From Mytilus edulis (lineage: Eukaryota): a DNA stretch of 64,000 nucleotides. The stretch lies in NCBI RefSeq assembly GCF_963676685.1, contig NC_092351.1, positions 26,288,001 through 26,352,000 on the forward strand, in the 5' to 3' direction. The translations under genes were made by a program, and so were the position numbers. Below the pieces are notes generated by a model. The model ran no database searches. It was not told where the DNA came from and worked only from the letters and a program-made list of their open reading frames with translations. Positions 1 to 5,898 of the stretch are shown piece by piece. Within the stretch, counting starts at the first letter, position 1; each line of letters starts with the position of its first letter.

Positions 1-15
1 ATAACAGATCATATC

Positions 16-1877
16 CACTGTGCTTAAACGGCTGTGGGTAACTTAAGTTACCCACAGCCCAAGATGGAGCCGCCTTGCGTCGGTTAGATACTTTTCTTCT
101 ATAGAATAACAATACCACGAATGCATCAATTAAACAACTGAATTTAAAAGTTGTATTAATCGTTTAGGGAAACTCCTAAACTGGAAAGGTGATTAAATTC
201 TACAAAATAAACGATCACAGCACGATTTAAAAAAACACTTAGGCTGTCCGTAACTTCAAAACAACTTGTCCGTAACTTTTTTCATCATACCAATAGAGAT
301 GTCCGTAACTTTCAAAGAATCGACATACGCGGATGTAATGTTTAAACTGATGATAGAGATTGCATCGAATACATATTCACAAAACGAAGTAGATGTCTAG
401 TATGATAAAATTCATTGTATCGATGGAAGACAAAATTGGAAAAAATATGAAAAAAATCACGATAAATCCGCAAAACTCGGGTCTCATTTTGTATAACGTC
501 GAGGTACCCGAATCGCCTAGTTCGGAGGGTTGTTTCCGATCATAGCAGAAAAACTGTTGAAACATCATTGTTCGTTTTTATTTTTGAACAAGTAGACTAC
601 ACAAGTATTTTTTACACATACATGTAGCATGTATACACTTACTGATTTTCTGCCAGCAACGACAAGGGTAGCGTACGTGAATCCGGGATTTTGGAGGGGA
701 ACCCAAATTTCCCAGGCATGCAGTGGATATACTATACGAGACTTAAGTGCACAAACTTTTCCCGTCTTTTGGAAAAAGCCAAAAACACCTTTCTCTCATC
801 CCCACAAAAACAAATCCCATCAGCATTGACAGTAAAATAAAAGGGGTGTCAATCTGGACACACGGGGACGTTGCGCACGGTGATATTGCGGCACCCTAGC
901 CAATATTTACAGTAAATGGGAAAACTTTAAAAAAGGACATTTTGTATAAATGAATAAACCTAGTTTTACAGCTAGCTGCATATTTCATTTGTATGCAAGT
1001 TGCATTAAATCTCATTAAACTGAATAAAACTAAAAGACACAATAGGTAAAAGTCAGTGACAATAAAAGGAAAAGAGCAGTCAACATACAGTAGTGTAACA
1101 ATTCGACATAGTATATAAAAATATAAATAACTACGTAGGACAACAGGGTAATTTAATAGTCTAACAACCCCTGATAACATACAAAGAGAGAAAAAAAAAC
1201 ATACTAGGAAACATATTCAAAAAATTATAACACTATAACTAACTGGTGGGATGTATAAATACCGAGCCGCTTCAAAGAGTATTCATCAAAATACACATAG
1301 AAAGAAACAGAGGTGAAGGTAAACCGCACACATATAATTAAACTCAAAACATTAAAGAGTATGGAAAAGCCTTGGTCTGACAAGCGAAAAACGTCGATAA
1401 GACGCACATCAGTAAATAAAAGTTCAAACCATAACCAGGATGGAGTACCACAAACCCCACATAAAACTTCTGTGGTGTAACATTTGGTGGTGAATGAGTA
1501 GTATAAACGGCCGCGAAAGTTACAAATATGATGTTAATTGTCTTCTAATTGTTGAAATTATAATTCTTAAAATTTTAAATCAAAAGTTACCCACATCTAA
1601 AAATAAAGTTACGGACAGTCTGCTTAGTTTCGATCAAAAAGTTATGGACATCTTATGCATTTTTTAAAGTTGACCTTGCGCTTTAGTGAACTCTATATTA
1701 ACAAATTTATGGTAATTGTTAGTCATTTCTTTATTCAATAATCCTATAAATATTTACATTCTGCATGAAAAACGTCGCAAAAGGTACATTTTGTATGAAT
1801 TAAATATCAACGAGTTTAGAGTCCGCCATCTTGGGCTGTGGGTAACTTAAGTTACCCACAGCCGTTTAAGCACAGTG
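16..1877. mobile_element. Non-autonomous Transib/RAG-like (CMC-related) DNA transposon
   Basis: Perfect 52-bp TIRs (16-67 and 1826-1877) beginning CACTGTG; exact 5-bp TSD ATATC at 11-15 and 1878-1882; mirrored subterminal TGTCCGTAACTT-like repeats; no transposase ORF. Confidence 0.85.
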
Positions 1878-1997
1878 ATATCCAAGGTGATAACATGATT
1901 GATTTGATCAATACTGAATTAACATATAATTACAATGTAATTTACTGAATAAACATATAATTTCAATGTAATTTACTGAATTTAATTACAATGTAAT

Positions 1998-2105
1998 TCA
2001 CACAACACTTTGCTGTTCATGGCAGGAATCTTCTACAAAACTTTTGTGATACAAGCCTGTGTCCCCATTGGGTAACATCCCTACACATACACCACTTTCA
2101 TCATC
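1998..2105 (-). CDS. Last exon: degenerate SH3-4 C-half and PDZ-binding terminus (DDESGVCVGMLPNGDTGLYHKSFVEDSCHEQQSVV*)
   Basis: ATTACAG acceptor, phase 0; G-x-x-x-G...TGLY-x-x-SFVE completes the SH3 fold; TGA at 2000-1998. Confidence 0.82.
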   Translation of the reverse strand, partial: DDESGVCVGMLPNGDTGLYHKSFVEDSCHEQQSVV

Positions 2106-4160: not shown

Positions 4161-4482
4161 ATATCATGATATTTTTGTGCTCAATCCCAGTTCAATTGCA
4201 AACTATTTGATAACAAATTTAAAACAATCCATACCATCCAAATGAAGATTTATCATAACTTAATCAATCAGGAAACTAGAAGTAAATCTAAGTGTTTCAC
4301 AAGGAAATGTTTTCTGAAAAACATGTAGCCACTTCAAAAACAATTATTTATATACCTTATCAATGTAAAATACTCTACCATATGAGAACAGAAAGTTAAA
4401 CTGAACACACATTCTAATAATTTTAGAAAAGAAATGTGTTTATATTATTAAGGGAGACCAGAGAAGTTACAAACATTTAACA

Positions 4483-5898
4483 ATGAATAGACGTGATTCA
4501 CAAGTGTCATTATCTTGTGGTGAATGCTGTACAACAAAGAATCTGAAGTACCGCTGTGTTGAGTGTAAAGTTACATTATGTGAAAAGTGCAAGGATTGTC
4601 ATTCTAATTCTCCATCAAATTCAAGTCACATTGTTTTATCCTTTGATTGCATCACCACCAACAATTGTATGGAAAATGAAATTCGAAAAATGCCTTGCAA
4701 GAAACATGGCACAAAAAAATATTCAGTTTTTTGTCAAAATTGCAATTTTCTGATTTGTGCAGATTGCTTTGTTGAAAGCCACTCGTATCATAGAACTATT
4801 AATATAGATGAATTTTTACAGGAGAAGTTTACCATTGGAGAAAGAAGTAGAAAGAAATTTATGAGAAGAATGTCATCTGATGATTCAGGTTTTCTTATCG
4901 TGGATTACCCAGAGGAGAATAGCAATCAGCCCCCTGTCTGGCATTCAGCTGCTGCAGGTTCTTTATTCATGACAAGAACAGTAGAAATTAAACTCATTAA
5001 AACATTCTCGACAAACTTACCAGCAATAGACAGTATAGAAATGGTAAATAAAGATGAAGCATTCATTTGTCATTATGAAGGAGACATCTGTAAAATTAAA
5101 CTAACACCAACAATATTTACCAACAGACTGAAGCAGTTTGATGAAGTAAGAGGTTTAGAACCAGCTGATATAGCTGTTAATTCCGTCGGGGATTTGTATC
5201 TAATATGCAGAGTTGACAAGTCTATAAAACTAGTGAAGAAAAACAGCCACAATAAAACTCAGATATCATCACTTCCCAAACATTTGAACATGGAACCTCT
5301 GTGTATTCACTGTGAGAAGGACAATGATTTACTCATCTGGATAGGGCTTGTTGAATTAGGAGCAAATTTTAAACTATCAAATCATAGCTCTCGTTGTGTG
5401 GTTTCTATACACGCTGATGGAAAATTATGTAATACTTTTGAATATTCCCATATAAATGAAGCACTGTTTACATTTCCATTGCGGATAACATCACATCAGG
5501 GTAGGATTTATGTTATTGACAGAAACAGTCAATCAGCTGGGACAGTCGTAGCACTCACTGAGAATGGCAATATCAAATGGAGGTACAGTGACCTACATCC
5601 AAGTTTCAGTCCAAGACCATTCCTTCCTTCCGATATAGTAGTTACAGAATTCGCAAAAATAATAGTGTTAGATTCAGCTAACAATGCATTCCATATACTT
5701 AACAATGATGGTTATCAAATTTTACACCAATCATTGAAAAGCTTAGAAATAGAATACCCAGTCAGCATGAAGTTTGATGAATCAAACTATTTATGGATTG
5801 GCAGTGGATTTAATGGGGGAACCGAAAATAAAGCTAAACTGAACAAAATTAAAATCACAGGAATAATTATAATAAAAGGTTTCAGTATTTTTCAATGA
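4483..5898 (+). CDS. Nested B-box1/B-box2/NHL-like beta-propeller protein (RING-less TRIM-NHL-like), 471 aa
   Basis: CxxC...CxxC-x4-CxxC-x3-H B-box1; CxxH-x8-CxxC-x4-CxxC-H-xx-H B-box2; C-terminal NHL/propeller-type repeats (FPLRIT..IYVIDR, PSDIVVT..IIVLD); uninterrupted ORF antisense in the intron 3530-7265. Confidence 0.88.
   Translation: MNRRDSQVSLSCGECCTTKNLKYRCVECKVTLCEKCKDCHSNSPSNSSHIVLSFDCITTNNCMENEIRKMPCKKHGTKKYSVFCQNCNFLICADCFVESHSYHRTINIDEFLQEKFTIGERSRKKFMRRMSSDDSGFLIVDYPEENSNQPPVWHSAAAGSLFMTRTVEIKLIKTFSTNLPAIDSIEMVNKDEAFICHYEGDICKIKLTPTIFTNRLKQFDEVRGLEPADIAVNSVGDLYLICRVDKSIKLVKKNSHNKTQISSLPKHLNMEPLCIHCEKDNDLLIWIGLVELGANFKLSNHSSRCVVSIHADGKLCNTFEYSHINEALFTFPLRITSHQGRIYVIDRNSQSAGTVVALTENGNIKWRYSDLHPSFSPRPFLPSDIVVTEFAKIIVLDSANNAFHILNNDGYQILHQSLKSLEIEYPVSMKFDESNYLWIGSGFNGGTENKAKLNKIKITGIIIIKGFSIFQ

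Follow-up and report, generated by a model that had tools for sequence, protein, structure and literature searches.

A gene-less Mytilus edulis transposon with Transib-like ends leads to an apparently undescribed P-related lineage of two-gene elements

To our knowledge a single solved structure, of an enzyme whose end chemistry is odd, represents the P-type transposase fold. The Drosophila P transposase is a GTP-using enzyme that makes 3' extensions of 17 nt (PMC7776569). CAC termini combined with a 5-bp target-site duplication (TSD) are hallmarks of the Transib and RAG-like (RAGL) elements, RAGL elements being known also from bivalves (PMC7204232, PMC1131882), and a single Transib ORF is recorded among 14,275 mollusc DDE elements (PMC10294476). 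Here we describe a gene-less element of Mytilus edulis that carries the CAC/5-bp signature, together with the long elements that share its ends, their transposase and the related lineage. The element in itself is ordinary and leads to an apparently undescribed lineage.

The element occupies positions 16-1877 (1,862 bp) of the window, the whole 64,000-nucleotide stretch of DNA that was analysed, and lies between ATATC TSDs at 11..15 (+), one copy of which is kept in the empty allele, and 1878..1882 (+). The left 52-bp TIR with its CAC terminus is located at 16..67 (+) and is the same at 51/52 positions as the left end of the long partner; the right 52-bp TIR (1826..1877, -) is 100% complementary to it. 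Each TIR holds a 30-bp palindrome, at 30..59 (unstranded) and 1834-1863. In the left palindrome the subterminal motif occurs twice, head to head, which makes it, judging from its sequence, likely a dimeric binding site. The TIRs, palindromes and TSD are as described in the initial annotation, which also reported three mirrored half-site repeats at each end. These repeats were found at the positions given, as copies of a 12-bp subterminal motif at 245..256, 267..278 and 300..311 on the left (+) and at 1584..1595 (inner), 1606..1617 (middle) and 1639..1650 (outer) on the right (-). The mirroring is only approximate, because the left-hand copies lie 230/252/285 from the element end and the right-hand ones 228/261/283.

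The left end region (16..311, +) and the right end region (1532..1877, +) are homologous to a long transposase-coding element (84% and 87%, respectively). The interior between them (312..1531, unstranded) has a longest frame of 106 aa and contains no transposase remnant. It is unrelated to the interior of the long partner, so the element did not arise from that partner by simple deletion. The 9-mer GCCATCTTG is present at 1825..1833 (+). The 9-mer fits a YY1-type site (PMC11602158) and is not conserved in the long partner, being altered at both of its ends; it was not found in the parts of the RAG literature searched. YY1-like motifs recur directly inside the TIRs of several sister families (L071, L073, L087 and L089). 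The initial annotation attributed an element of the GCCATCTTG type, in the opposite orientation, to the TIRs of amphioxus ProtoRAG, where it would lie at a fixed spacing.

A genome search, in which 40 of 770 candidates were scored, recovered 30 full-length copies at 94-100% identity. The first 27 bases of the element have 330 exact matches in the genome, 165 per strand, and the reversed control has 0. Tabulated over 53 distinct two-ended copies, the TSD is mostly 5 bp long (exact in 43/53) and sometimes 6 bp (7/53, 13%). With shuffled flanks of the 53 copies, 5-bp TSDs arose 1.4 times on average and 6 times at most; together, the reversed-end and shuffled-flank controls show that the ends and TSDs are not due to chance. 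The target site is a loose palindrome, cATNATg, with a GC content of 18% in the TSD, 35% in the 15-bp sites and 32% in the flanks. After removal of 3 mis-oriented sequences from 42 aligned copies, 37 copies form a star-like tree at distances of 0.5-1.7% from the majority sequence, and two others are 4.7% and 12% away from it. The family is a recent burst of a young non-coding cut-and-paste transposon; the low divergence and the frequent 5-bp TSDs bear out the view of a recently mobile non-autonomous element.

A presence/absence polymorphism, for which the initial annotation had suggested looking, was seen as an empty site in 4/4 DNA runs from four studies. Contigs of these runs skip 1,867 bases between the flanks, that is, the 1,862-bp element plus one 5-bp TSD, and an empty allele therefore exists; contigs do not tell whether the runs lack the filled allele. 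One further copy (L012, C3:31.4767-31.4786 Mb) has no TSD, and its flank shares 9 bases with the right flank of the copy at 16-1877, by chance or through a rearrangement. A non-autonomous 1,648-bp subfamily with the same TIR (L053, C3:69.004-69.006 Mb) is nearer to the left part of the long partner, and older non-autonomous subfamilies with the same TIR (L047, L049, L061 and L069) do not contain the part at window positions 691-904. Contigs from each of the four RNA-type runs give the element family good coverage.

The last coding exon of a host SH3-domain gene lies at 1998..2105 (-), with the stop codon at 1998-2000, 120 bp from the element and in agreement with the distance first estimated. 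Contigs bridge the empty site in 3/4 RNA-type runs (one recorded as RNA, two guessed). The bridging contig includes the SH3 last exon in two runs, in one of which its end is loose at the splice acceptor, and extends at least 900 nt further in the third. Since RNA-type contigs span the empty site and the last exon, the insertion site lies in the SH3 3' UTR. An AATAAA on the strand of the host gene (1730..1735, -) is a candidate premature polyadenylation signal; any effect of the element on the SH3 gene would be a local matter. An intronless 497-aa B-box/NHL frame occupies window positions 4405-5898 (+), on the strand opposite to the SH3 exons.

Among the longer and unpaired ends fetched, two long copies have the ends of the element in common. 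Both are about 9.6 kb long and damaged. The copy at C1:62349904-62361911 measures 12,008 bp including a 2.4-kb insert and has its own 5-bp TSD; the copy at C2:49.345-49.355 Mb is without its first 22 bases, and the two are 98.7-98.9% identical to one another. The C1 copy matches the element at 51/52 TIR positions on each side and at 84-87% over the outer 300-350 bp, and shares the motif spacing 230/252/285. Gene 1 encodes a transposase of about 1,450 aa in a long frame and two short downstream exons. Gene 2 is convergent, encodes five C2H2 fingers and has its stop 59 bp from the transposase stop. The damage to the two copies in this assembly consists of an in-frame stop in one and a frameshift plus the clipped left TIR in the other, so that the active source is elsewhere, lost, or a sister family. 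A protein search of the genome, with 70/70 candidates scored, found no other full copy of the partner family; its matches number 58 in total, and in several of them the frame is open over 1,336-1,511 aa. A protein record from another assembly is 98% identical, and the partner family therefore exists elsewhere. As the long copies were sought among 100 listed of the 330 end matches, other same-ended long copies with different genes are possible. Two internally deleted partner copies (L150 and L151, C13:27.86-27.88 Mb) have kept no more than the left part, along with a short piece of the transposase. A copy of the finger-gene region, 81% identical, occurs at C5:11.076 Mb (L137, L138) and at 49.7 kb of C1253, with no matching transposase or ends in the stretches fetched.

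In the alignment of transposases the order of parts is the first D in xDGKK, YqaJ, P-like strands, the second D in FDGQ, DxxH, a helical region and the final E in ExFF; YqaJ thus separates the first catalytic D from the second, inside the RNase H fold. Pfam detects YqaJ (PF09588) in 18/25 members and PF21787, the N-terminal family of the P-type RNase H, in 10/25 (best E 2e-5), and the THAP and RAG1 families are absent from the matches of these 25 members. THAP is also unmatched in the scanned frames of the ordinary P elements of this genome, so a separate small THAP exon is possible. Many members have an N-terminal C2H2-like finger. In 50 full-length representatives, drawn from the best 150 matches, the catalytic residues are kept in 92-100% of the covering rows, both for the DDE/DxxH set (D1 49/49, D2 47/49, DxxH 49/49, E 46/46) and for the exonuclease (E 44/48, D 48/50, E 48/50, K 48/50). 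On these alignments the members possess the DDE triad and the D(2)H motif by which the P superfamily is recognized (PMC9587614, PMC3698922).

Two fold models were compared with solved structures. The first, of an intact relative 52% identical to the partner transposase (pLDDT 83), matches the Drosophila P transposase 6p5a with Z 25.8 (rmsd 3.7, 350 residues aligned) and, at residues 290-498, lambda-type exonucleases with Z 14-15; values for other enzymes are Z 11.3 for HzTransib, 8-10 for RAG1, 8.5 for BbRAGL and 8.1 for Hermes. The second, of the C-terminal 270 aa of the partner itself (pLDDT 89), has 6p5a (Z 14.5) as the sole chain of 48,161 with Z of at least 8, BbRAGL and HzTransib reaching 6.5 and 5.5. 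The transposase is accordingly predicted by the models to have an RNase H fold with a P-type helical insertion domain, and YqaJ, which keeps the catalytic E, D and ExK, to be a nuclease with a lambda-exonuclease fold. Likeness to P in sequence is faint (Foldseek E 9e-4 and 0.02), and profile-profile comparison with the ordinary P elements of the genome was non-significant (E 0.011 and 0.34). PDB sequence searches with family profiles yielded no P chain, one giving an exonuclease (E 0.014) and the other nothing meaningful, and Pfam had no match to the C-terminal block alone. Of the GTP contacts of P, the non-significant alignment suggests conservation of S409 and F443; at N447 it shows D, and at K400 and D444 variable residues.

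Convergent C2H2 exons are present in 20/20 related loci fetched from this genome, all with the same gene layout. At 21 long loci including the partner the TSD is 5 bp in 12 and 6 bp in 1, with none recovered in 8; the termini of the 13 TSD-bearing loci are CAC in 12/13 and CAA in 1/13. Several related families carry a repeated subterminal motif of their own, and the closest families share finger tip residues and a GTAAC motif. Over 14 families, the more alike the transposases are, the more alike are the fingers (Mantel rho 0.60, p 1e-4), which shows joint inheritance and is not proof of binding; shared ancestry alone can explain the correlation between fingers and motifs.

A profile search gave 1,076 representatives at E 1e-30 or better. 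Of 20 clusters looked up, four are named and belong to Batillaria, Branchiostoma and, in two cases, Owenia, i.e. to a gastropod, an amphioxus and an annelid. Metagenome contigs delivered 7 short loci, and on one such contig the element's motif precedes, on the upstream side, a transposase that is 50% identical; as these loci are without full ends, the TIR, TSD and finger gene are established for this genome only. No relative was found in viral contigs, and the ESM Atlas contains one unnamed YqaJ cluster.

The same genome harbors an ordinary P family (Pfam PF21787-9), with a 7-bp TSD in 3/3 independent copies. Its copies are located at C10:60.59/60.63 Mb (L139, L140), C3:6.92 Mb (L142) and C11:7.52 Mb (L149). 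The family is about 12 kb long, with CAAGG termini and, as a second gene in convergent orientation, an ORF of 433 aa that weakly matches C2H2, and other P copies also have convergent ORFs; two-gene layouts may be common among mollusc P elements. Copies L139 and L140 (C10:60.586-60.644 Mb) lie in an inverted duplication, at least 18 kb long, whose limit coincides with the element terminus.

The best explanation, held with good confidence, is that the element at 16-1877 is moved in trans by the same-ended two-gene long elements, whose transposase would combine a P fold with a lambda-type exonuclease nested in the catalytic core. Confidence is higher still, from the shared ends, that an enzyme of this P-like family mobilizes it in trans; the partnership rests on those ends, as no transposition was seen. 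In the proposed mechanism the C2H2 protein with its five fingers would take the role that the THAP domain has in P, bind the subterminal motif array and the palindrome and bring in the transposase. Such recognition by the finger protein is marginally favored. The DDE core would then cut at the CAC ends and join them to the target with a 5-bp stagger, and the nested exonuclease would trim the 5' strands at the break. This trimming could yield long 3' single-stranded ends like those of the staggered cut of Drosophila P, or could resect the donor for a homologous repair that restores the copy. Lambda-type exonucleases run 5' to 3', and lambda exonuclease works as a trimer, so that a fused domain fits poorly. 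The trimming is the least certain step and falls a little short of an even chance.

The initial annotation had proposed a Transib or RAG-like transposase as the enzyme to which the element is a non-autonomous partner. In its favor are the CAC termini and 5-bp TSDs and the occurrence of RAGL elements in bivalves, the secondary likeness of the first fold model to Transib and RAG1 (Z 8-11), and the convergent arrangement of the two genes, as in RAG1L/RAG2L. Against it, the same-ended long copies encode a P-fold enzyme and a C2H2 protein rather than RAG2L, and a non-Transib transposase was the very outcome named in advance as speaking against this partner. Moreover, the TSDs are poorer in GC than the flanks, whereas Transib favors GC-rich sites (PMC1131882), and in the TIR the AAA stands at 11-13, not at 8-10 as in the protostome RAGL consensus (PMC7204232). 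A RAG1 family search of the genome gave no candidate, a weak result because its control was silent. A Transib or RAG-like partner is largely refuted and now very improbable. Cross-mobilization by an intact sister family, such as those at C7:59.04 Mb or C1:121.78 Mb, is improbable to a lesser degree. Frames of 1,343 and 1,336 aa are open in these families, which are 62-65% identical in the C-terminal part and possess similar finger tips and related motifs, but their TIRs differ widely past the first bases, whereas the TIR of the element agrees with that of the damaged pair at 51/52 positions, and the 98%-identical protein indicates a partner family in existence elsewhere.

A closer contender keeps the same P-like lineage and assigns the exonuclease and the finger gene to tasks other than end processing and binding, for instance the clearing of DNA intermediates or the regulation of transposase expression. 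The accessory nucleases of ISL2EU and Kolobok have no shown function (PMC4482050, PMC9587614), and the N-terminal C2H2-like finger of the transposase could itself bind the ends. On the other side, the exonuclease is nested in the catalytic fold with its active-site residues kept across a deep family, and the finger gene travels with the transposase at 20/20 loci. This division of labor is a substantial possibility, somewhat below even. For mobilization by the two-gene long elements, which remains the preferred reading, a wider generalization would be a widespread animal group at sister level to P, in which an exonuclease built into the core processes the ends and a retargetable C2H2 protein recognizes them, and which converged on the CAC/5-bp-TSD signature; this we regard as possible and on balance rather doubtful.

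The long elements apparently constitute an undescribed P-related two-gene transposon lineage in which an exonuclease is nested and the ends bear Transib-like marks. In the literature searched, no description of a P-like transposase with YqaJ was found, and the layout was absent from the available parts of PMC7204232, PMC9587614, PMC1131882, PMC11602158, PMC10294476, PMC3698922, PMC7776569, PMC4482050, PMC5718144 and PMC8355894; Repbase, supplements and subscription journals lay outside the scope of the search. The portion of the main text of PMC10294476 covered mentions neither YqaJ nor an exonuclease, and that of the preprint bioRxiv 10.1101/2021.09.26.461848 no YqaJ. Because CAC termini with 5-bp TSDs can come from a P-fold enzyme, Transib or RAG calls of gene-less elements in marine invertebrates need a check of the partner. 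A large family with a core-nested exonuclease and a separate zinc-finger protein offers a direct test of how ends are made and recognized, and young families with intact frames are on hand for assays.

Compared with known systems, the lineage resembles the P superfamily (6p5a/6pe2; Galileo, 1360; PF21787-9) in the RNase H fold, DDE triad, DxxH and P-like GTP-binding-type helical insertion, as well as in CA termini and internal repeated binding sites. It differs from P in TSD length (5 bp, 13% 6 bp, versus 7-9 bp; PMC3698922), in the size of the transposase (about 1,450 aa versus 751 aa), in the nested YqaJ and second C2H2 gene, and in that THAP was not detected among the members scanned; it thus shares the fold of ordinary P elements and neither their THAP domain nor their 7-9-bp TSDs. 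With Transib, RAGL and ProtoRAG it shares the CAC termini and 5-bp TSD, and with RAGL the convergent two-gene layout. It departs from them in its own insertion domain and motifs and in AT-rich targets. Transib is 3-4 kb long (PMC1131882), with a single RAG1-core-like transposase of about 700 aa and GC-rich targets, whereas elements of this lineage measure 7-14 kb and the partner, at about 9.6 kb, has two genes and P as its best fold. Where RAGL and ProtoRAG pair a convergent RAG1L with a kelch-type RAG2L, the second gene here is a C2H2 array and not RAG2-like.

The YqaJ-type nuclease and the Kolobok C/DxxH motif recall KolobokE (PMC9587614), in which, however, the nuclease is located downstream from the transposase domain, with the elements having TTAA TSDs and RR termini; the differing transposase layout and TSDs place the present lineage outside that group. 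ISL2EU (PMC4482050) likewise possesses a lambda-exonuclease-like (YqaJ) nuclease, encoded there in a separate ORF beside a PHIS-type core and accompanied by AT TSDs, whereas here the nuclease is nested within a P-type core.
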